From Cenarchaeum sp. (lineage in GTDB: Archaea > Thermoproteota > Nitrososphaeria > Nitrososphaerales > Nitrosopumilaceae), in contig OZ243037.1 of the NCBI GenBank assembly GCA_965212015.1, positions 896,001-960,000 on the forward strand: 64,000 nucleotides of DNA, given 5' to 3'. Shown here piece after piece: positions 1 to 9,403 of this stretch (the first letter of the stretch is position 1; the number at the start of each line of letters is the position of its first letter). The position numbers and the translations under genes were made by a program. The notes under the pieces were generated by a model. It made no database searches. It saw nothing but the letters and a program-made list of their open reading frames with translations, and was not told the DNA's origin.

Positions 1-1271
1 GCCGCACGCATTGTGGCATTTGTGAGACCGTATTGTGATCGATGTCCTTCATCCACCAAAACAAAACAGGATTCATCGGACACAGGATGAGGTTTCTCAT
101 CTTTAAAGAATGGAAATTTAAATACCGTACTCATTATGGTTTTTCCTCTATTGTTTTCTATCATTTCTTTTAGATTGTCCCGATCTTTAGCTCGAACTGG
201 GGTTGGAAATCCACATGATTTGAAAGTGTTATGAATTTGTTTATCTAGTTGTTTTCTATCTGTTACGATCAACACTGTGGGATTTTCATATAATCGTTTT
301 AATTTTAATGCCAACCAAAACATAGTAAGTGATTTTCCAGAGCCTTGAGTATGCCAGATCACACCGCCTCTTTCAACCGGAATTTTTCCTGTATCTATCC
401 TTCGAATTGTTTTTTGTACAGCTCTGAACTGCTGATATTTAGCAATTTTCTTGGTTTTTTCACCTTCTTCTATTTGGAAAACAGTAAAACTTTTTACCAA
501 TTCCAATAAGTTTTTTTTTGTAAGCATTCCATCGATTAAGATTTCTTGCTGTCGTGATCTATTCTTTTGTTTGATATTTTCTAACGGATATGAATCTTTC
601 CATTCTCTGTAGTTGTGAGATGATGCAAAGGTTGGAGCATATCTTGCCTTAAGTCCACATGTTGCAACTAGGATTTGTACATAGTAAAATAGACTCTCAT
701 ATCCTGTTTTAGGCTGCTGATATCGATACAGATTGTTGTTTATCGCCTCACTAAGTGGATTTGATATATATGGTGATTTGCATTCTATTACCACTAATGG
801 TATTCCATTAACAAATATTACAATATCTGGAAGTATGTCATTTTTGTACCCTTTGAGGAAGTATTGATTTGTTACAAAAAAGTCATTTTTTTCGATCTTT
901 TCAAAATCAATAATTTTTACAGTACGTGGCTTGTTGCCATCACCAAGGTTTTGCATTACAGTGATTGGTCGTAATCGGCCTGTAGAGAGCCCTATTATTC
1001 TTGCATGTATTATTTCATTTGCGTCAATCGCAATATTGCTATCAAATTTTTTAAATTCTCTTACAACATCGTCAATTCCCTGATCATCGATCCAGGGATT
1101 TAGACGTAATATTGCCTTCTCAAATCTATCAATTAAGAGGGGCTCTAGATCAGACTTGCGTGTTTTGTCCAATTCTGACCTAGTTTTATATTCAAATCCA
1201 AGCTGTTTTAGCTGCTCTATTGCAGGCATTTCTGATTGTTCCTTTTCAGGACCATGTTCTTGTACACTCAT
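1..1271 (-). CDS. hsdR: Type I restriction enzyme R subunit (5' part; runs off window start)
   Basis: Not in ORF track. Manual translation MSVQEHGPEKEQSEMPAIEQLKQL..., with GGVIWHTQGSGKS (Walker A) and LVDEGHRSQY (DEAH-type). ATG overlaps the hsdS stop (ATGA). Confidence 0.93.
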   Translation of the reverse strand, partial: MSVQEHGPEKEQSEMPAIEQLKQLGFEYKTRSELDKTRKSDLEPLLIDRFEKAILRLNPWIDDQGIDDVVREFKKFDSNIAIDANEIIHARIIGLSTGRLRPITVMQNLGDGNKPRTVKIIDFEKIEKNDFFVTNQYFLKGYKNDILPDIVIFVNGIPLVVIECKSPYISNPLSEAINNNLYRYQQPKTGYESLFYYVQILVATCGLKARYAPTFASSHNYREWKDSYPLENIKQKNRSRQQEILIDGMLTKKNLLELVKSFTVFQIEEGEKTKKIAKYQQFRAVQKTIRRIDTGKIPVERGGVIWHTQGSGKSLTMFWLALKLKRLYENPTVLIVTDRKQLDKQIHNTFKSCGFPTPVRAKDRDNLKEMIENNRGKTIMSTVFKFPFFKDEKPHPVSDESCFVLVDEGHRSQYGLTNATMRA

Positions 1272-2458
1272 GTCTTTACACGTATCTTCCCAGTTAGAAG
1301 GTTTTGCATAAGTCCTTTTTTTAAACGTTCGAGTTTTTCTTTATATACTTGATTTTTTTGAATGTACGCATCAACTCCTGACAGAATTGATGCAATTTTT
1401 TGTTGTTCTTTAATGTTTTTAGGAACTTTTATTTTAAAAGAATGTAGATGATTTCTATTTAATGTAGGAACACTAGTTCCTGAATTGAATTTTTCGTAAT
1501 TTAAATTTTGAAGTAAATAAAAAACAAATTTTGGAAATGATGAACGAAATTCTTTTACATATAATGACGTATTCAATGGCCAATAATTTTCTACAACATA
1601 ATATGTTTTTCCTAAAGTGCCACTTCGTCCAATTATTACTCCAGGACCATTAGATTTGTATTTATTATGGTATCCAACAACACCATTTGAACCTATTACT
1701 GGAATTTTACCAATTTTACGTTCATGTTTTGGTAAATCATGACCTCTTTGAAGAAAAATTATAGAATCTAACCTAGAAAATTTAATCAATGAATTTTTAA
1801 TTCCTTTTGTGAGCAGCTGCTGCATCAGACCTTTTTTCAGCCTCTCGGTCTTTTCGATTATTCCTTGTGTGGATTCGATCAATGCATCAACATTAGAAAG
1901 AATTGATGCAATTTTTTGTTGTTCTGTAATATTGGGAATCGGAAGAATAATTTTTTTAACACTATTTAAATCTAAATGTAACACTGTGGTTCCAGCACTA
2001 AAAGAAAATGAACTTTTGTGAAAAAATTCACTAGAAAATAAATAAAATAGAAATTTTTTATATATTAATTTGGTGTTTATTTTACAATGAGCTGTATCCA
2101 TAGAATGAAAAACTTTCTTTATATTATGAAAATTTGGTATTATTAATGGAAATCCAATTACATTACCATCACGAGTTACATCAGTGATTGAGATCAGGAT
2201 TTCGTTTGTAGCTATTGAACATTTATTTGTCTTGCCAGTGAAATATATGATACCTTTATCTACAAATCCTCCTAATTTTTGAAAGCAATTGAGATTAATG
2301 AGAATATTGCCAATTTTTTCTGAATTGATTTCTTGGCTGCTGTAGCTTATTCCTCGAATTAATTCCATTAATTGATCGAGTTGAATAGTGTCATATTCCT
2401 CTGGGATTTTAATTTCCAAAAATCGTGGTTTAAGAACTAATTTCTTGAATTTTGCCAT
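1268..2458 (-). CDS. hsdS: Type I RM specificity subunit, two TRDs
   Basis: Two TRDs, each followed by EQQKIASILS...KKGLMQ.LLT conserved helices; ends GKIRVKT. Confidence 0.95.
   Translation of the reverse strand: MAKFKKLVLKPRFLEIKIPEEYDTIQLDQLMELIRGISYSSQEINSEKIGNILINLNCFQKLGGFVDKGIIYFTGKTNKCSIATNEILISITDVTRDGNVIGFPLIIPNFHNIKKVFHSMDTAHCKINTKLIYKKFLFYLFSSEFFHKSSFSFSAGTTVLHLDLNSVKKIILPIPNITEQQKIASILSNVDALIESTQGIIEKTERLKKGLMQQLLTKGIKNSLIKFSRLDSIIFLQRGHDLPKHERKIGKIPVIGSNGVVGYHNKYKSNGPGVIIGRSGTLGKTYYVVENYWPLNTSLYVKEFRSSFPKFVFYLLQNLNYEKFNSGTSVPTLNRNHLHSFKIKVPKNIKEQQKIASILSGVDAYIQKNQVYKEKLERLKKGLMQNLLTGKIRVKT
1367..1394 (-). repeat. dif-like dyad site A (TGCATCAATTC-TGTCAG-GAGTTGATGCG on minus strand)
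   Basis: Part of a 44-bp inverted repeat 1368-1411 / 4521-4564 with one mismatch; 11-bp arms, 6-bp spacer. Confidence 0.8.
1883..1910 (-). repeat. Variant dyad site B in hsdS central conserved region (spacer TTTCTA)
   Basis: Same arm cores TGCATCAA/TTGATGCA with a different spacer; 27 bp (1899-1925) identical to 1383-1409. Confidence 0.65.
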
Positions 2459-2514
2459 ATTTCCACCTTGTAGTCAGCACAACCCCTATAAATCAGTTAA
2501 AAATATAATGGTTG
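2459..2514. promoter_or_regulatory. Short divergent promoter region hsdS<- ->hsdM
   Basis: ~55-bp gap between divergent starts, with TATA-like TTTATA (minus) and TATAAAT/AATATAA (plus). Confidence 0.5.
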
Positions 2515-4005
2515 ATGGCCGAAAAGCTGACCTTTAATAAGCTAAAAAATCACTATTGGGACGCGTCTGATATCTTAAGAGGCGGTCTTGATGCGAGTGA
2601 ATATCGTCAGCCAATAATGACACTATTATTTCTAAAAAGATTAAATGATCAATTTCAGGAAAAAGCTGAAAAGCTGGAAAAAGAAGGTAAACCAAAAAAA
2701 ATAGCTTATGAAGATACTGACTACCACACATTTTTTGTGCCAAAAGCATCAAGATGGAATGTATTATCAAAGGCTTTTGAAAATATTGGTGAAAAAATAG
2801 ACAAAGCTTCTGTTGCATTAGAGCGCGCCAATCATTCACAGCTTGAAGGCGTTTTAACCAATATATCATATAATGATAAGAAAAAATATTCTGATGAAGA
2901 TCTTTTAAAACTTGTAAGTCATTTCAGTAAATACAGATTAAGAAATTCAGATATTGAAAATGAAGATATTTTTGGTCAGGCTTATGAATATCTCTTAGAG
3001 CAATTTGCTGATTCAGCTGGGAAAAAAGCTGGTGAATTTTTTACCCCACGAGAAGTGGTAGAATTATTGGTAAAGATTTTGGCACCTACAGAAAAAATGT
3101 CGATTTGTGATCCTACATGTGGTTCAGGTGGGATGTTAATCTGGTCTAGGCAATATGTACAAGAACACAAAGGAAATCCAAAAAATCTTTCATTGTATGG
3201 ACAAGAGAGAAATTTTGGAAATTATGGGATGTGTAAAATGAATATGATCCTGCACGGTATTGAAAATTTTAAAATTAAACAAGGAAATACCTTATCAAAT
3301 CCACTTTTTGTAAAAGGTGGAAAATTACAAGAATTTGACAGAGTTGTAGCTAATTTTCCTTTTAGTATGGATTGGAATAATACACAAGCTGCACAAGATA
3401 GATATAATAGATTTGAATTTGGAATTCCTCCATCTAAAGGAAAAGCAGATTTTGCATTCATTCAACACATGTATTCATCACTTAACAAGAAAGGTAAAGC
3501 CACAATTGTCTGCTCACAAGGTATTTTATTTAGAGGAAATATAGAAGGTAAGATTCGTGAAAATTTTATTAAAAATGATATAATTGAAGCAATAATTGCA
3601 TTACCGGCTAATTTGTTTTTTGGGACAGGAATTCCAGCATGTGTTTTAGTTCTAAATAAAGCAAAACCTGAGAAAAGAAAAAACAAGATTTTATTCATTT
3701 ATGCTGCAAAAGATTTTCTTGATTTAAAAAAACGTGATATTCTTAGAGATGAAGATATTAAAAAGATAATTTCATCATATGAAAAATTCAAGGATATAGA
3801 AAAATATTGCCATATCGCTGATTTAGATGAAATAAAAGAAAATGAATTTAATCTAAATGTGCCAAGATATGTGGATATTTCTGAGCCAGAAGAACAAATT
3901 GATGTCCAGGATGCATATAATGAATTAAAAAAATCATTTAAAGAACAAAATATACTTAAAAAATCTATAGAGGTAGATCTAAAGGAATTGAATATTAAAC
4001 TTTGA
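2515..4005 (+). CDS. hsdM: Type I RM N6-adenine methyltransferase
   Basis: GEFFTPREVV, DPTCGSGG (motif I), ANFPF (motif IV variant), FNLNVPRY. Confidence 0.96.
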   Translation: MAEKLTFNKLKNHYWDASDILRGGLDASEYRQPIMTLLFLKRLNDQFQEKAEKLEKEGKPKKIAYEDTDYHTFFVPKASRWNVLSKAFENIGEKIDKASVALERANHSQLEGVLTNISYNDKKKYSDEDLLKLVSHFSKYRLRNSDIENEDIFGQAYEYLLEQFADSAGKKAGEFFTPREVVELLVKILAPTEKMSICDPTCGSGGMLIWSRQYVQEHKGNPKNLSLYGQERNFGNYGMCKMNMILHGIENFKIKQGNTLSNPLFVKGGKLQEFDRVVANFPFSMDWNNTQAAQDRYNRFEFGIPPSKGKADFAFIQHMYSSLNKKGKATIVCSQGILFRGNIEGKIRENFIKNDIIEAIIALPANLFFGTGIPACVLVLNKAKPEKRKNKILFIYAAKDFLDLKKRDILRDEDIKKIISSYEKFKDIEKYCHIADLDEIKENEFNLNVPRYVDISEPEEQIDVQDAYNELKKSFKEQNILKKSIEVDLKELNIKL

Positions 4006-4682
4006 ATGATATTTTAGAACCTAAAGCAAAATATAAGAAAGTACAAAACTTTTTTAAAAAATATTTTATTATACCAATTGATTGGGAATATCCAAAATTT
4101 GCTTCAGTAATATATGTAAATCCAAAAACTAAAATATTTTCAAAAACTGCACCATATGTTCCAATGGATGCTGTAAACACTAATTGTAGAATGGTAGATT
4201 ATTATGAGAATAGGAATGTATCAGATCATTCAAATTTATCAAAATTTATAGAACATGATATATTATTTGCTAGAATTACTCCTAGTACTGAAAATGGAAA
4301 AACTGCTTTCATTGAGAATTTTAAACATGTTGGTATTGCATCATCTGAATTAACTATTTTACGACCTACAAAAAAAATTATTCCACAATATTTATATTAT
4401 TACATAAAATCACACAGGATCAGATCATTTGCTATTTCACAAATGCTGGGCACCACAAATCGCCAGAGAGTTCCAGAATATGTTTTTGAAAAAGATCTGA
4501 ATTTTGAATTGCCATCTATCAAAGAACAGCAAAAAATTGCATCAATTCTGTCAGGAGTTGATGCATATAAAAAAATTATATATATCATAATATTGAATAT
4601 TTTATATATAAAATTAGCAATATATTTGATAATGTTCACTGCTGATGTATTTAGATTTGGATCTAATCAAATACATTATTAA
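4002..4682 (+). CDS. hsdS: Half-size HsdS (one TRD); conserved C-terminal helix replaced by a hydrophobic AT-rich tail
   Basis: IPIDWE start motif, single TRD, EQQKIASILSGVDA; similarity to the other hsdS stops at the dyad site. TTG start overlaps hsdM stop. Confidence 0.85.
   Translation: MNDILEPKAKYKKVQNFFKKYFIIPIDWEYPKFASVIYVNPKTKIFSKTAPYVPMDAVNTNCRMVDYYENRNVSDHSNLSKFIEHDILFARITPSTENGKTAFIENFKHVGIASSELTILRPTKKIIPQYLYYYIKSHRIRSFAISQMLGTTNRQRVPEYVFEKDLNFELPSIKEQQKIASILSGVDAYKKIIYIIILNILYIKLAIYLIMFTADVFRFGSNQIHY
4538..4565 (+). repeat. dif-like dyad site C (TGCATCAATTC-TGTCAG-GAGTTGATGCA)
   Basis: Arms are 10/11 self-complementary; spacer identical to site A and in inverted orientation. Confidence 0.8.
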
Positions 4683-4750
4683 ATCTACTTACAAAAAACA
4701 CCATATTCATAAACACATATGTAAAAATAGTTATCATACAAGCAACATAC

Positions 4751-5662
4751 ATGATAATAGCCAAGCAGAGAAGCACCAAATTATTTGAGGAATCCATAAA
4801 ATCAAAATATACAAAAAGAAACTGCAATAATAATCTAAGACAATTTCAGAAATTCGTCATCAGATATACATCAAAAGATCTGTCAGATATCAATGTTGAA
4901 AATCTACAGAATTTACTGGAGGACTATATCATCGAGCTAAAACATACTTCACATCCAAACTCCATACCGTCAAAATTCCAGGGAATAAAGCATTTTTGTG
5001 TAATGAACCGAATCAATCTCAACTGGGACATCATACACAAGATGTTCCCCCAGAAACAAAAAACACAAAATTTGAGATCCTATACCTCAAAAGAGGTCAA
5101 AAGACTATTAGTCGGCACAAAAAGCGTCCGAAATCAAGCCTTGGTTCATTTTCTAGCATCAACCGGCGCAAGAATCGGCGTATTTGACCACGAATTATTA
5201 ATCAAACATATGAAAAGGATGCCCAGCAAATGTTGTGCAGTCAAACTCTACGCCGGAGACATGGAAGAATATTGGTCATTTCTCACTCCTCAGGCAACGA
5301 AGATACTGGATTTGTATCACGAGCAACGTAAGTTAGGCGGAGAATCATTATGTGATGAAACACCCATTTTTGCGACAAGCTTCGGGCAACTTGGATGGAA
5401 TGGTGCAAGATCTGTCGTATATCGAGCCATATCAAAAAGTGGCATTGACAGAAACAAGCGGAATAACCGTTATGACGTACAGGCAGACCATGGCCTCAGA
5501 AAAAGATTCAACACCATACTAAAATTGGACAATTCTATAAACTATAACATTGCAGAAAAGCTTATGGGCCACAAGAACGGTCTAGATGGAATATACCTGA
5601 CACCCACAATTGACGAATTATTTGCAGAATTCAAAATAGTCGCACACAAATTGGAGATCTGA
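4751..5662 (+). CDS. Tyrosine recombinase/integrase
   Basis: STGARIG (R), HGLRKRF (HxxR), LMGH and downstream Tyr (GIYL). Confidence 0.92.
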   Translation: MIIAKQRSTKLFEESIKSKYTKRNCNNNLRQFQKFVIRYTSKDLSDINVENLQNLLEDYIIELKHTSHPNSIPSKFQGIKHFCVMNRINLNWDIIHKMFPQKQKTQNLRSYTSKEVKRLLVGTKSVRNQALVHFLASTGARIGVFDHELLIKHMKRMPSKCCAVKLYAGDMEEYWSFLTPQATKILDLYHEQRKLGGESLCDETPIFATSFGQLGWNGARSVVYRAISKSGIDRNKRNNRYDVQADHGLRKRFNTILKLDNSINYNIAEKLMGHKNGLDGIYLTPTIDELFAEFKIVAHKLEI

Positions 5663-5831
5663 GTGATTATTCTTGTGTGCCCAAATGGATAATAATCCCA
5701 AATGGCGATTAGTCAGCAAATAGCATCAAATCTCCTACAATGATCGGCAATTCCAACAATCAATCTAACTTATCAATGAAAGACAGCGATAGCTTTATAG
5801 AATCCTCACCGCTAGTATCATAATTCCAATC

Positions 5832-8135
5832 TTGACAATTCCAGTATGGCAGATGATTCGTGAGGCAATAGATGCCCTTGGAGGTACTGCAACCAATAGT
5901 AAAATTCGGGATTACATAAATTCCAAGTATAAAGGAGTCAATCAAGGAACTATTAATTGCCAAATTATCTCTTGTACCGTAAACAGGGCATCCAGGGTAC
6001 GTTTTCCAAAAAATTTCAAACCCAGAAAAGCAGACACAGAATATGATTTTTTGTATTCTGTAGGGAGAAGCAAAGTGATTCTTTACAAGCCAGAGATACA
6101 TGGAGATTACGAGATAGCAATACATGATGGAAAACCAAAAGTTTTGACCAACGGAGGAATCATTGATAACAGCATAGAATGCGCTCTCTTAGAATTTATT
6201 CAAAACGAGATGGAAATGGATACAAATTATCAACCCATAATCATAAAGACTTTGTTGGAAAGTGGGAATGAAAACAGATTTGAGTCCGACAAGGAATTAA
6301 TCCAAGAAAAACTTCAGGAATTAAACTTTGAGAAGCAATTTGATTTTGATAATATGTTGGAATCCATAAGAAAAGATCTAAATGGATTTGTTACCTTTGG
6401 TAACAGAATTATAGGTTTACATTTTGATCAATTTTCATCCAAAGACATACCGGAATGTTTGAAAGCATGTGGACAAAAAATCGCACAATGGCATATGGAT
6501 AATTATCAAATAGACATGTGGTCAATGCTGCCTGGCAGAACAAGGGAAAATTATCCATTTTTGGATGAATTTTTACAAACCAATTCAATTGGTGTCGGAT
6601 GGAATCGAATCAAGGATATTTCTGATCTCACAAAAAACCAAATACTCAAAGAGTTTAATAGACGATATCCTGAGGAAGACAGTGCAAGCTTTAGCGATTT
6701 TACAAGAATAGACAAAAAAGATCTGATTGTACTGACCAGAGGACAAAAGGAGATTGTAGACTATGGGATTGTCACCGGTGATTACCACTATGAATCCAAA
6801 AGCCCCTCATATACACACAGAAAGAAGATTGTCTGGCTAAAACGAGGTCCTGTCTTGCCAAAAGAGTTACCAAACCCCACTTTGGAAGGATTTATGCGCA
6901 CATGCATTAAAGTCTTAAAGCGGAGAGAAGAGCTGATTCAGGTATTGCTTGAAAAACACACAGTTAATAATATAGTTCCTGCCGATAATTATACAGTGGA
7001 GCAAAAGCTAGAAAAAATACTAGATCTGAAAAAACAGTTGATTCTGTACGGCCCTCCTGGAACTGGAAAAACATACCATGCCATGCGTCTTGCACAGCAT
7101 TTAATCAGAAATAACTCTTCGAGACAGGCTCTGACTTTTAGATCCGCCACAATACAGGTTCTCAAAGAAACTGGTAAACCTATGCATTACAAAGACATTT
7201 ATCAAAAAATCAAAGATCAGAATTTGATTCAAAGTGCAGGTCAGACGCCAAGAGATACCATGCGAGCAATAATATACAGGGATATAAAACACAAGGGATC
7301 AGATTCAATCTTTAAAAAAACTGACAACGGAACATATGAATTAAATCAAGATTCACAAGAATATGAAATCAAATTCAGTGATGAAATTCCAGATGATCAG
7401 CCAAAATTCATTCGTAGCGTGACATTTCACCAATCATATTCCTACGAGGATTTTATCGAGGGCATAAGGCCTACTGCAATCAATAATCAGATATCCTACG
7501 ATCTAGAAGACGGTATTTTCAAACAGATTTCCGAGGAAGCTCGGGCCGATCCCTTGAACAAATATGTGCTGGTAATAGACGAAATCAATAGAGGAAACAT
7601 CTCCAAGATCTTCGGCGAGCTGATTACATCGATTGAAAAGGACAAACGGGAAAACCACACACTACAACTGGCCTACTCGAAGGAAGAATTTACAGTCCCA
7701 AAAAACCTATTCATCATAGGTACGATGAACACTGCAGATCGCAGCCTGATTCAAATTGACACAGCACTGAGGCGACGATTCTCATTTCATGAATTAATGC
7801 CAGAACCTGAATTATTGAGTCAAATAATCGAGGGGATTCCTGTGAGGGATATTTTGACCATGCTCAATCAGCGAATCAAACAGGAGGGACTACGTGAGCG
7901 GCAAATAGGTCATTCATATTTCATGAGCATATCAGATCTAGATGGACTACAGTTTACCTTTGCCCACGACATTGTGCCACTGCTCCAGGATTATTTCTTT
8001 GATGACTATAAAAAACTGGAAAATGACATTCTAAGCAGTGATTTTGTTGATTCCGACAATATGAAAATCAAAACGGACTGGCATGATGATCCGCAAAAAT
8101 TCCTAGAAATTCTAAAAAATATTCTCCAACAATGA
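5832..8135 (+). CDS. mcrB: McrB-like AAA+ GTPase with multiple putative DNA-reader domains
   Basis: GPPGTGKT, VTFHQSYSYEDFIEG, IDEINRGN, MNTADRS, ALRRRF. Confidence 0.93.
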   Translation: MTIPVWQMIREAIDALGGTATNSKIRDYINSKYKGVNQGTINCQIISCTVNRASRVRFPKNFKPRKADTEYDFLYSVGRSKVILYKPEIHGDYEIAIHDGKPKVLTNGGIIDNSIECALLEFIQNEMEMDTNYQPIIIKTLLESGNENRFESDKELIQEKLQELNFEKQFDFDNMLESIRKDLNGFVTFGNRIIGLHFDQFSSKDIPECLKACGQKIAQWHMDNYQIDMWSMLPGRTRENYPFLDEFLQTNSIGVGWNRIKDISDLTKNQILKEFNRRYPEEDSASFSDFTRIDKKDLIVLTRGQKEIVDYGIVTGDYHYESKSPSYTHRKKIVWLKRGPVLPKELPNPTLEGFMRTCIKVLKRREELIQVLLEKHTVNNIVPADNYTVEQKLEKILDLKKQLILYGPPGTGKTYHAMRLAQHLIRNNSSRQALTFRSATIQVLKETGKPMHYKDIYQKIKDQNLIQSAGQTPRDTMRAIIYRDIKHKGSDSIFKKTDNGTYELNQDSQEYEIKFSDEIPDDQPKFIRSVTFHQSYSYEDFIEGIRPTAINNQISYDLEDGIFKQISEEARADPLNKYVLVIDEINRGNISKIFGELITSIEKDKRENHTLQLAYSKEEFTVPKNLFIIGTMNTADRSLIQIDTALRRRFSFHELMPEPELLSQIIEGIPVRDILTMLNQRIKQEGLRERQIGHSYFMSISDLDGLQFTFAHDIVPLLQDYFFDDYKKLENDILSSDFVDSDNMKIKTDWHDDPQKFLEILKNILQQ

Positions 8136-9403
8136 CTGTTATCACTTTAAAAGAATACGAAACATTCCCATCTAATCAAGGAATATCTGATCCAGTGTCT
8201 TTAAAACATATTCGCGGATTGAAGCTTGAGGAACAAGATAAAAAATTAAAAAAAGAACTACAAAAGAATATACTTTCCATCAATGTCGATCCTTTTCAGG
8301 AAGGATTATTGCAGTTTAAGGCATATAGCCACATAGGTGTGGCACAATTTACAAATTTCTCCATCTCTATAACACCTAAATTCTCAGAAATTGGAAAATT
8401 GATTGAACTGATTGACTATGTCTATGATCTTGATCTTGAAATATTCCCAGAAAGTGAATCCAAATTTGAAGGAGAAAGACACATGATATCGGAGATTATC
8501 ATAACCACATTCGTAAAGAAATGCCAAAAGCTGATCCGGCAAGGACTCTTCAAATCATATAATAATCACGAGGATGATCTACCGTTTCTGCGAGGAAAAC
8601 TGCTTGTATCACAGCAAATACGTAATCAGGCCAATACTAAGCTCCAATTTTCATGTAAATATGATGAATTCGAATATAATAATCTGGACAATCAGATCAT
8701 TTTATACTGTTTGAGACGGATCTATTATCTGACCATAAATGAGAAAAGAAAAAAAGAAATCAGAATATTGATTCAAGAATTTTCAGATCTAGTCGATGAT
8801 ATTGGAATTTCATCAGATGACTTTGCTAAAATCAATTACAATCAAATGAATAGCCACTATAAAAAAATCCATGAATTATGTCGTCTGATCATAGGAAATA
8901 TTCAAATTACTAATTTTTACAAACAGAAATTACGCTTTATCAATTCATTTTTTATAGACATGAATATTGTATTTGAAAAATTCATCTTCAAGCTATTTGC
9001 AGAATTTTATCCATTGCATGCCAAAGATCAAGAGAGTGATATTGCTTGGAAGACGGAGAATGAAGGAAAGACTATCCAATCTATTACAGATATTTTAATT
9101 TTTGAAAAGGACCAAAATACCGTACATACTATAATAGATACAAAATATAAAACTGATCTTACAAATGCCGATCGATATCAATTAGAGCATTATATACACG
9201 ATCATAAGAAAACAGAAGCATATGTAATATTGCCCGAATTTAAAGATGCAAAATATAACAGCTATATTGCAACAAGACAGGATATTCAAATCAAAGTCAG
9301 ACATGTCAATATAGACAAAGTATTAGAATATATCAATCTCAAAGATCCAAGATCGAAAAAAGACAAAATCAAGGAATTATTGATAGAAGTTATTCCACTG
9401 TAG
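8132..9403 (+). CDS. mcrC: McrC-like PD-(D/E)XK nuclease
   Basis: ATGA overlap with mcrB; LRGKL, DMNIVFEKF, TDI...IIDTKYK, DRYQL motifs. Confidence 0.9.
   Translation: MTVITLKEYETFPSNQGISDPVSLKHIRGLKLEEQDKKLKKELQKNILSINVDPFQEGLLQFKAYSHIGVAQFTNFSISITPKFSEIGKLIELIDYVYDLDLEIFPESESKFEGERHMISEIIITTFVKKCQKLIRQGLFKSYNNHEDDLPFLRGKLLVSQQIRNQANTKLQFSCKYDEFEYNNLDNQIILYCLRRIYYLTINEKRKKEIRILIQEFSDLVDDIGISSDDFAKINYNQMNSHYKKIHELCRLIIGNIQITNFYKQKLRFINSFFIDMNIVFEKFIFKLFAEFYPLHAKDQESDIAWKTENEGKTIQSITDILIFEKDQNTVHTIIDTKYKTDLTNADRYQLEHYIHDHKKTEAYVILPEFKDAKYNSYIATRQDIQIKVRHVNIDKVLEYINLKDPRSKKDKIKELLIEVIPL

Follow-up and report, generated by a model that had tools for sequence, protein, structure and literature searches.

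A candidate invertible restriction-enzyme specificity switch in an archaeon of the marine ammonia-oxidiser group

Switching of type I restriction-modification (RM) specificity by DNA inversion is well studied in bacteria. In the SpnIII (ivr/cod) locus of Streptococcus pneumoniae with its PsrA/CreX tyrosine recombinase, as well as in the bacterial "epigenetic invertons" surveyed by Huang et al. 2020, opposed hsdS genes contain inverted repeats and a tyrosine recombinase is encoded at the locus, so that inversions change the HsdS composition (PMC4948785; PMC7096588; PMC7672463). Inverting hsdS genes driven by a tyrosine recombinase are also present in the hsd loci of Mycoplasma pulmonis (Dybvig and colleagues). 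There, the hsdS genes flank hsdR and hsdM, which therefore lie inside the invertible DNA. In Neisseria gonorrhoeae, NgoAV displays phase variation between a one-TRD HsdS with a symmetric target (GCAN8TGC) and a fused two-TRD HsdS (GCAN7STCA) (PMC9577141).

In contrast, such switching is essentially uncharted in archaea. One systematic scan states that archaea were left out (PMC9881135), and a long-read survey included 42 archaeal data sets, all labelled Euryarchaeota or Crenarchaeota, and calls archaeal invertons minimally investigated (PMC10028968). A 2024 review of archaeal RM holds no word beginning with "inver" or "recombinase" (PMC11033074). In line with the original prediction, which knew of no characterised archaeal example, literature searches found none. 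The locus described here differs from the known phase-variable type I RM systems in its archaeal host.

The locus was found in a window of 64,000 nucleotides from Cenarchaeum sp. (GCA_965212015.1, contig OZ243037.1, positions 896,001 to 960,000), and the host has archaeal rRNA. It sits in a roughly 15-kb island of about 30% GC in a 51% GC genome. The original prediction described an hsdR and an hsdS gene on the minus strand, followed by hsdM and a half-hsdS on the plus strand and by a recombinase, with a 44-bp inverted repeat at the same codon phase in both hsdS genes. This observation was confirmed exactly. The ORFs and their Pfam domains show intact HsdR, HsdM and HsdS, two hsdS genes in opposite orientation with inverted repeats inside them, and a recombinase encoded at the locus (Table 1).

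Table 1. Features of the locus, with positions in the window.
Position	Strand	Feature	Remarks
1..1271	-	hsdR	The 5' part lies in the window; whole gene of 984 aa at 5317-8271 of locus L001; HSDR_N, SWI2_SNF2, T1R_D3-like, T1RH-like_C; its ATG overlaps the hsdS stop as ATGA; fixed outside the invertible segment
1268..1366	-	HsdS C-terminal coiled-coil tail	Only copy; fixed next to hsdR, outside the invertible segment; closely resembles the true tails of relatives (L020, L023, L030, L037)
1367..1394	-	Core site B (11-6-11)	Spacer at 1378-1383; start of the distal conserved region of the two-TRD hsdS; one mismatch to site B', at the last base of the right arm
1365..1414		Left arm of the inverted repeat	50 nt, 94%
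1268..2458	-	Two-TRD hsdS (396 aa)	Two Methylase_S stretches; complete in the assembled state
1883..1910	-	Orphan core-like site	Central conserved region; spacer TTTCTA; no partner with this spacer in the genome
2459..2514		Divergent hsdS/hsdM spacer	Single TATA-like box (TATAAA at 2487-2492); inside the invertible segment; promoter role inferred
2512..4005	+	hsdM (497 aa)	N6_Mtase 372.6 bits, HsdM_N; inside the invertible segment
4002..4682	+	One-TRD hsdS (226 aa)	One Methylase_S stretch; TTG start overlaps the hsdM stop; lacks the coiled-coil tail in this state and reads into non-coding DNA after 4565
4538..4565	+	Core site B' (11-6-11)	Spacer at 4549-4554
4518..4567		Right arm of the inverted repeat	50 nt, 94%
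1381..4551		Predicted invertible segment	About 3.17 kb between the spacer centres; carries the 5' parts of both hsdS genes, hsdM and the divergent promoter region
4566..4750	+	Read-through tail and leader of the recombinase module	Last ~50 nt before the ATG conserved in relatives
4751..5662	+	Tyrosine recombinase (303 aa)	Candidate invertase

Within the limits given by the original prediction (1368-1411 / 4521-4564), the repeat comprises 44 nt with one mismatch at 1403, and it includes an exact stretch of 35 nt. The core reads TGCATCAATTC-TGTCAG-GAGTTGATGC(A/G), where the spacers of both sites are identical and the arm symmetry is 10/11 and 9/11. Both copies encode ..EQQKIASILSGVDAY in frame, and similarity stops 2 nt after the core. 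Chance is excluded as an origin of this arrangement, since at up to 3 mismatches the core gives 2 matches in the window, against 0.00 expected from 100 shuffles. At up to 6 mismatches the 1.76-Mb genome holds only 3 copies, the third being the central conserved region of the full hsdS (1882-1910), with 5 mismatches that all lie in or beside the spacer. The real null hypothesis is conservation of paralogous coding sequence, which is addressed by the comparative data below.

The recombinase contains the catalytic Arg, His-x-x-Arg, His/Trp and Tyr nucleophile of the tyrosine recombinase superfamily as R141, H247, R250, H274 and Y282, which are invariant in alignments of 19 and of 74 homologues, whereas the catalytic Lys was not assigned. 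The AF2 model (pLDDT 86.1, pTM 0.75) displays a two-domain tyrosine-recombinase fold like that of Cre, Xer or lambda Int. A Foldseek search gave 68 PDB matches at E<=0.001, with XerA (5hxy) as the best hit at E 3.3e-9 and Cre-loxP (2hof_B) at TMq 0.68. On sequence level the protein is very divergent, as no PDB sequence hit was obtained up to E=10 and Pfam PF00589 reaches only 20.2 bits against a gathering score of 27.1, although many homologues carry a precomputed PF00589 hit. The sites had been called dif-like in the original prediction. This holds for the 11-6-11 layout only, since the enzyme scores 47.6 bits against a cut-off of 220 for archaeal XerA (NF040815) and is not a Xer orthologue.

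Comparison with relatives from Nitrosopumilaceae records links this recombinase clade to specificity genes. Of 42 loci whose recombinase is >=53% identical, 24 have an HsdS ORF within 2.5 kb, against 0 of 37 loci with <=48% identity. Of the 18 close-clade loci without an HsdS ORF, six have a short flank and one (L031) is a type IIG case, in which the same clade is flanked by 236-nt, 99% inverted repeats in a type IIG enzyme gene. A strict dyad consensus occurs in 26 of the 42 close loci, against 0 of the 37 distant loci. Furthermore, 41 of 43 HsdS ORFs in those loci, plus both window genes, carry the dyad at the start of each conserved region, always in the same codon phase (79 sites).

Opposed partner genes share the 6-nt spacer in 14/14 central pairs and 13/14 distal pairs, while the central and distal spacers differ within every gene that has two sites. 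Spacer identity between partners could, however, partly reflect gene conversion of longer repeats. Homology ends 0-8 nt beyond the core on the tail side in 14/14 distal pairs, and in the loci L006, L023 and L037 the repeat is the core plus at most 7 nt. Exactly one true tail and one read-through tail are present in 14/14 loci with two distal sites. The arm codons are frozen (Ser TCA 35/35 and 39/39, Val GTT 33/33, Ile ATT 39/39), whereas the spacer Ser varies (TCA 15, TCG 9, TCT 5). An HsdS with a related TRD (L097), from a genome where the recombinase was not found at E<=1e-90, lacks the dyad.

An alternative would be that the recombinase is the integrase of a cryptic integrated element carrying the RM genes as cargo, and that the repeat is only conserved coding sequence of paralogous hsdS genes. 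Type I RM S, M and R subunits, an M48 peptidase and XerC/D-like integrases are indeed common in thaumarchaeal integrated elements (PMC6563490), and the window has a YgjP-like peptidase and lies in a low-GC island. Nevertheless, no flanking direct repeat (attL/attR) longer than 11 nt was found between the island borders, and in relatives the enzyme sits between opposed hsdS genes. The shrinkage of partner homology to the bare core, the frozen synonymous positions in the arms and the missing dyad in L097 also speak against this possibility, which is considered very unlikely.

It is also conceivable that rearrangement occurs by general homologous recombination or gene conversion between the repeats and not by the neighbouring recombinase. 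Rearrangement of spnIII is reported to be independent of known recombinases (PMC6620402), and some relatives have long repeats of 100-236 nt. However, the window repeat is only 50 nt and some partner repeats are 28-35 nt, and the site has a recombinase-type dyad layout with spacers that match between partners. This explanation is likewise regarded as very unlikely.

In silico, inversion across the two spacers yields what the original prediction had proposed. The minus strand then carries hsdM (497 aa), an hsdS of 220 aa with one TRD plus the true C-terminal tail, and hsdR, with 4-nt overlaps, whereas the two-TRD gene (402 aa) reads into non-coding DNA. The position of hsdM inside the flipped segment has parallels among the relatives (L002, L003, L007). 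In the present state, the 226-aa product has no full conserved helix, since it lacks the helix after ..GVDAY, while the in silico flipped product contains it. Natural one-TRD HsdS proteins with true tails exist as well (proteins P0126, P0128, P0129, P0130 and P0133). A homodimer model of P0129 scores an ipSAE of 0.85, against 0.34 for the best of 3 controls, with 100% agreement of contacts between runs, a partner pLDDT of >=90 and the antiparallel helix 174-217 as the interface. The mark was reached by 20 of 30 proteins solved as pairs of one chain and by 1 of 23 solved as single chains, but these counts hold only roughly, since a custom alignment was used, and the pass may rest on likeness to solved HsdS structures. 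No near-identical alternative form of the half-HsdS is present in the protein database, where the best non-self hit is 70% identical.

Counting both orientations in sequencing reads had been proposed in advance as a test of flipping. The only runs found (X1 and X2, from one study, X1 being probably the source sample) are kept as Logan contigs, which break at all three conserved-region repeats. Since the 35-nt exact repeat is longer than the 31-nt words, these contigs speak neither for nor against the presence of both orientations in one population. Alternative methylation motifs were not measured, which needs SMRT or nanopore kinetics. A comparison of orientation in related genomes had been suggested as well. 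Here, none of 4 same-genus genomes has the cassette. The loci L019 and L078 carry a homologous read-through tail on opposite partner genes, although this is not a clean single inversion.

Taken together, the comparative evidence is strong, a site-specific inversion system is the best reading of it, and the interpretation given in the original prediction is supported, with the restriction on "dif-like" and with the remark that an "epigenetic switch" in the sense of gene regulation is no better supported than plain switching of defence specificity. With fair confidence, the locus is viewed as a horizontally acquired type I RM locus built as a two-state DNA-inversion switch. It is a real feature, but its activity is unproven. 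Against this view stand, among others, the lack of read-level evidence, the 18 close-clade loci without an HsdS ORF and the difference between the two cores at the last arm base. In this view, the recombinase would pair the two 28-bp core sites, exchange strands in the spacer and flip the segment. In the assembled state, the single tail completes the two-TRD hsdS, which is co-transcribed with hsdR, while the one-TRD hsdS behind hsdM should be inactive. In the flipped state, hsdM, the one-TRD hsdS with the tail and hsdR would form one overlapping operon and the two-TRD gene would lose the tail. The one-TRD subunit would act as a homodimer and recognise a symmetric bipartite target, and the cell population would alternate between two restriction/methylation specificities. 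While the anatomy, the fold and catalytic residues, the family-wide site architecture and the in silico products rest on the present analysis, it is only inferred that recombination occurs in this host, where the strands cross over, that the read-through forms are inactive and what the target sequences are.

A fossil switch, which descends from an invertible system but no longer flips in this host, would also fit some of the data, for example if the recombinase is silent after transfer or accessory parts were lost, so that the assembled two-TRD state would be fixed. The island is foreign to the host and absent from the 4 same-genus genomes, so that expression and activity in this host have not been established. 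The window furthermore lacks the two small ORFs (one HicA-like) that lie between the silent hsdS and the recombinase in several relatives. In addition, one partner has a single TRD, the central site is an orphan and no alternative-state sequence was found in the contigs or the protein database. On the contrary, all genes are intact, the recombinase keeps every invariant residue, the cores share the 35-nt exact stretch with identical spacers and the ~50 nt upstream of the recombinase are conserved. This explanation appears unlikely, although less so than the other two.

A wider reading, considered slightly more probable than not, is that marine ammonia-oxidising archaea possess a portable specificity-flipping module, in which a divergent tyrosine recombinase acts with a 28-bp core site written into the coding sequence of RM specificity genes. 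The module would serve two HsdS families and a type IIG enzyme and would follow a single-tail rule, where two full-length specificity genes compete for the one C-terminal helix and exactly one is functional at a time. This would give two-way switches, as in this window (two-TRD against one-TRD), or four-way switches. It would be the first programmed DNA inversion system shown in Thaumarchaeota, diversifying methylomes and virus defence in a globally abundant group. If the system is active, single archaeal lineages carry mixed methylomes and mixed virus-resistance states. The site, the enzyme clade and the logic are defined well enough to be tested directly. The ammonia-oxidising Nitrosopumilaceae are abundant and ecologically important and have few genetic tools. 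A compact 28-bp site with its own recombinase is also a candidate tool.

Compared with the thaumarchaeal cryptic integrated elements, the locus shares the host group and the presence of RM, M48-like peptidase and tyrosine recombinase genes in foreign islands. There, the recombinases are treated as integrases and the main text holds no word beginning with "invers" (PMC6563490), whereas here the enzyme is tied to opposed specificity genes. The Xer/dif system with archaeal XerA has the 11-6-11 layout in common with the locus, but the sites described here lie in inverted pairs within hsdS coding sequence and not as a single intergenic dif site per chromosome. NgoAV, a bacterial system, switches by polyG slippage and not by inversion. 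In M. pulmonis, the recombinase is encoded elsewhere and also serves the vsa locus.

With respect to SpnIII and the epigenetic invertons, the first difference is the archaeal host, since the consulted passages of the survey name only bacterial phyla (six invertase clades, 16 phyla). The second is the strong divergence of the recombinase. Moreover, the site is one compact 28-bp dyad in a fixed codon phase rather than repeats of differing lengths, both partners are full ORFs with start codons that compete for a single C-terminal tail, and in the window hsdM and the promoter lie inside the flipped segment.

The gene order that was originally predicted is confirmed by the ORF list and by Pfam. Here, the stop codon of the two-TRD hsdS overlaps the start of hsdR as ATGA, and the TTG start of the one-TRD hsdS overlaps the hsdM stop. 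The spacer between the divergent hsdS and hsdM starts harbors a single TATA-like box, located 29 nt from one start codon and 23 nt from the other, so it may be a shared bidirectional promoter for leaderless mRNAs, although no consensus scan for promoters or terminators was performed. The coordinates of these and of further features are summarized in the table.

Coordinates of the features at the locus and in related loci. Loci designated L are those returned by the scan of the genome collection; L001 is the locus of the window itself with its flanking DNA.
Feature	Reference	Position	Strand	Remarks
Low-GC island	window	about -3500 to 11500		about 15 kb, roughly 30% GC
hsdR	L001		-	984 aa (whole gene)
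Two-TRD hsdS	window	1268-2458	-	396 aa
Core-site spacers (simulated crossover)	window	1378-1383 and 4549-4554		TGTCAG
Divergent hsdS/hsdM spacer	window	2459-2514		56 nt
TATA-like box	window	2487-2492		TATAAA
hsdM	window	2512-4005	+
One-TRD hsdS	window	4002-4682	+	226 aa
Recombinase gene	window	4751-5662	+	303 aa
McrB-like GTPase and McrC	window	5832-9403		McrB-like GTPase 767 aa
Contig breaks	window	1376-1397, 1872-1924 and 4535-4559
Junction in one contig of run X1	window	4701 to 1896		depth 2.16
Tandem repeat	L001	4432-4513 (window about -2568 to -2487)		perfect 25-nt tandem repeat, three overlapping 32-nt copies
YgjP-like metallopeptidase gene	L001	4628-5320
ORF without family match	L001	17071-18276		401 aa
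Serpin gene	L001	18469-19482
Related locus with the read-through tail	L019	8715-10943
Two small ORFs	L023	7414-7925		similar in L006, L010, L011, L030, L036, L037
Type IIG-like locus	L031	4445-9999
Related locus with the read-through tail	L078	1-7030

The inverted repeat is real, and the observation behind the original prediction holds. A repeat search revealed 50 nt at 94% identity, and the 44 nt with one mismatch that had been predicted were recovered, the mismatch being at position 1403. The 28-bp core consists of two 11-nt arms (symmetry 10/11 and 9/11) around the same 6-nt spacer. With up to 3 mismatches this core occurs twice in the window in comparison to 0.00 expected from shuffled sequences, and with up to 6 mismatches it occurs three times in the 1.76-Mb genome. 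The third copy is the central conserved region of the full hsdS, which has a different spacer. Both partner copies lie in the same reading frame (..EQQKIASILSGVDAY), and similarity ends 2 nt after the core.

The genome is a single contig of 1,764,220 bp at 51.1% GC, contains archaeal SSU and LSU rRNA, and its 16S is up to 96% identical to genomes of the same family. In contrast, the cassette lies in an island of low GC content, which also holds a YgjP-like peptidase gene following hsdR and, directly after the recombinase, an McrBC pair, in which the McrB-like GTPase displays DUF7669 and HARE-HTH domains ahead of AAA_5. Together with the RM cassette the McrB-like GTPase and McrC form a small defence island. 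A tandem repeat is present near the left border, downstream of the YgjP-like gene, and a serpin gene sits at the right border where the GC content returns to the host level. None of 4 same-genus genomes has the cassette. Close recombinase homologues (E<=1e-90) occur in 24 of 401 sampled family genomes, the window's own included, and seventeen of these belong to one genus of 99 genomes. Records with related loci are almost all titled Nitrosopumilus or Nitrosopumilaceae. Two loci (L024, L073) are found in records titled as bacterial bins (Hyphomicrobiaceae, Phycisphaerae), but these are short contigs and binning errors are possible. The island is read as a horizontal acquisition from low-GC relatives, which is an inference. 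As an alternative, the recombinase might be the integrase of the island with only incidental paralogue repeats in the hsdS genes. Thaumarchaeal integrated elements do carry such genes (PMC6563490); nevertheless, a search for att sites at the island borders was negative, with no repeat longer than 11 nt, and this explanation is considered very unlikely.

On sequence level the recombinase is very divergent. The Pfam Phage_integrase model scores 20.2 bits, which is below the cut-off of 27.1, the archaeal XerA model scores 47.6 bits against a cut-off of 220, and a PDB sequence search with the recombinase profile gave no hit up to E=10. Even so, R141, H247, R250, H274 and Y282 are invariant in alignments of 19 and of 74 homologues. 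In a fold search, used instead of the PDB sequence search, an AlphaFold model (pLDDT 86.1) matched XerA (E 3.3e-9) and Cre-loxP (TMq 0.68). It is therefore a tyrosine recombinase, but not a Xer orthologue. The genome has one copy of this clade. Since the two other tyrosine-recombinase-like genes of the genome have no NCBIfam match, the true XerA was not identified.

A scan of the genome collection returned 80 loci, and the comparative evidence obtained from these suggests that the dyad is a recombination site. Of the 42 loci whose recombinase is >=53% identical, 24 have an HsdS ORF within 2.5 kb, whereas none of the 37 loci with <=48% identity does. A loose dyad pattern (up to 2 mismatches per arm) proved to be unspecific, hitting 16 of 37 distant loci, whereas a strict consensus occurs in 26 of 42 close loci and in 0 of 37 distant loci. 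Furthermore, 41 of 43 HsdS ORFs carry the dyad at the start of each conserved region, always in the same codon phase, and the two ORFs without it are fragments of 60 and 88 aa. The dyad is found in two different HsdS families, ..IASILSGVDA.. and ..IESIFxxIDA...

Typical loci contain two opposed hsdS genes around the recombinase with nested site pairs, as in L006, L023, L030 and L037. Partner sites share their spacer in 14 of 14 central pairs and in 13 of 14 distal pairs, and central and distal spacers differ within every gene that has two sites, which is the pattern expected if strand exchange needs spacer identity. On the tail side, homology between distal partners ends 0-8 nt after the core in 14 of 14 pairs, and in L006, L023 and L037 the whole repeat is the core plus at most 7 nt. 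Generic paralogue conservation cannot explain that. Homologous recombination without the enzyme is regarded as a very unlikely rival.

The arm codons are frozen, with Ser TCA in 35/35 and 39/39 sites, Val GTT in 33/33 and Ile ATT in 39/39, while the Ser codon in the spacer varies (TCA 15, TCG 9, TCT 5). Since the sites were picked with a DNA pattern allowing 2 mismatches per arm, this count is partly circular. A search for the third TRD type of the window in 401 family genomes gave only 5 matches including the window's own. As a control, an HsdS with a TRD 60% identical to this third TRD, from a genome in which the recombinase was not found at E<=1e-90, keeps the protein motif but has no dyad; this control is effectively a single case. 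A homologue of the recombinase with 56% identity (L031) sits between inverted repeats of up to 236 nt at 99%, which lie in the C-terminal part of a 1157-aa Eco57I/MmeI-like type IIG enzyme and in an opposed 269-aa ORF. This is probably a specificity shufflon for a type IIG enzyme, and the clade is therefore tied to flipping of specificity domains more generally.

In 14 of 14 loci with two distal sites, one gene continues into a proper coiled-coil tail, whereas the other reads into unrelated, mostly hydrophobic sequence. The window follows this single-tail rule. The read-through stretch is itself homologous among loci and across both HsdS families and lies just upstream of the recombinase module, so it looks like translated leader DNA rather than a protein domain. 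In several of the related loci this module also holds two small ORFs between the read-through hsdS and the recombinase. The second matches HicA_toxin (27.8 bits against a cut-off of 27), and the first appears HicB-like only by visual inspection, as Pfam found nothing. The window lacks both.

The products of an inversion were examined by simulating a crossover in the two spacers. The minus strand then carries hsdM (497 aa), a 220-aa hsdS (one TRD plus the true tail) and hsdR with 4-nt overlaps, while the plus strand carries a 402-aa two-TRD hsdS ending in the read-through tail. Natural one-TRD HsdS proteins with a homologous TRD (60-65% identity) and true tails exist, namely the database proteins P0126, P0128, P0129, P0130 and P0133. 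A homodimer model of P0129 passes the control test with an ipSAE of 0.85 against 0.34 for the best of 3 controls. This mark was reached by 20 of 30 proteins solved as pairs of one chain and by 1 of 23 solved as single chains, although these counts hold only roughly since a separately built alignment was used. Furthermore, the pass may reflect likeness to solved HsdS folds. The runs agree in 100% of contacts, and partner pLDDT is >=90. The predicted interface is the antiparallel helix 174-217, which is the part that the present half-HsdS of the window lacks.

A count of both orientations in sequencing data, and a comparison of orientation in related genomes, had been proposed in advance as tests of the switch. 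For the former, two runs of one study hold the stretch, of which X1 is probably the source sample. These are present as contigs that break at each conserved-region repeat, and since the 35-nt exact repeat exceeds the 31-nt word length, recombinant junctions make no new words, so that the orientation is not readable from them and no direct proof was obtained. One contig of X1 at depth 2.16, in comparison to about 615-700 for the main contigs, joins two distant positions with one extra T. One of these, position 1896, lies inside the orphan central site, and this junction is unexplained. No near-identical alternative protein form is present in the protein collection, and activity in this host is therefore inferred. 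A fossil switch is the strongest of the rival explanations, but is considered unlikely.

For the comparison of relatives, L019 and L078, which come from records with the same isolate label and are 92–95% identical in their shared parts, carry the homologous read-through tail on the recombinase-proximal gene in one locus and on the distal opposed gene in the other. This is as expected for opposite switch states, but the two loci differ in other ways too. L005 and L017 share a 4.3-kb block at 99.3% identity that ends about 26 nt past a distal site; here, however, the TRD modules are rearranged in a way too complex to be read as one inversion.

In the literature, the main texts of PMC7394358 and PMC7383803 contain no words beginning with 'archaea', and PMC7672463 mentions archaeal species with several hsdS genes once in its introduction, while only bacterial phyla were seen to be named for its invertase clades. 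In PMC9881135 it is stated that archaea were not scanned. Searches for Nitrosopumilus with hsdS, and for Thaumarchaeota with type I restriction and tyrosine recombinase, found nothing on inversion, although supplements were not covered and archaeal entries in survey tables can therefore not be excluded, and PMC11033074 contains no word beginning with 'inver' or 'recombinase'. PMC10028968 includes 42 archaeal long-read sets, all labelled Euryarchaeota or Crenarchaeota, with 12 invertons, and cites Atack et al. as hinting at archaeal type I invertons.

The feature is real and well defined, and the interpretation of the locus as a candidate inversion switch between a two-TRD and a one-TRD HsdS is supported by the analysis. 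The gene anatomy, the sites and their distribution among the related loci were observed directly, whereas switching itself was not demonstrated and is inferred. The mechanism as such is known from bacteria; what is new is its archaeal version, which has a sharply defined core site and a single-tail logic.
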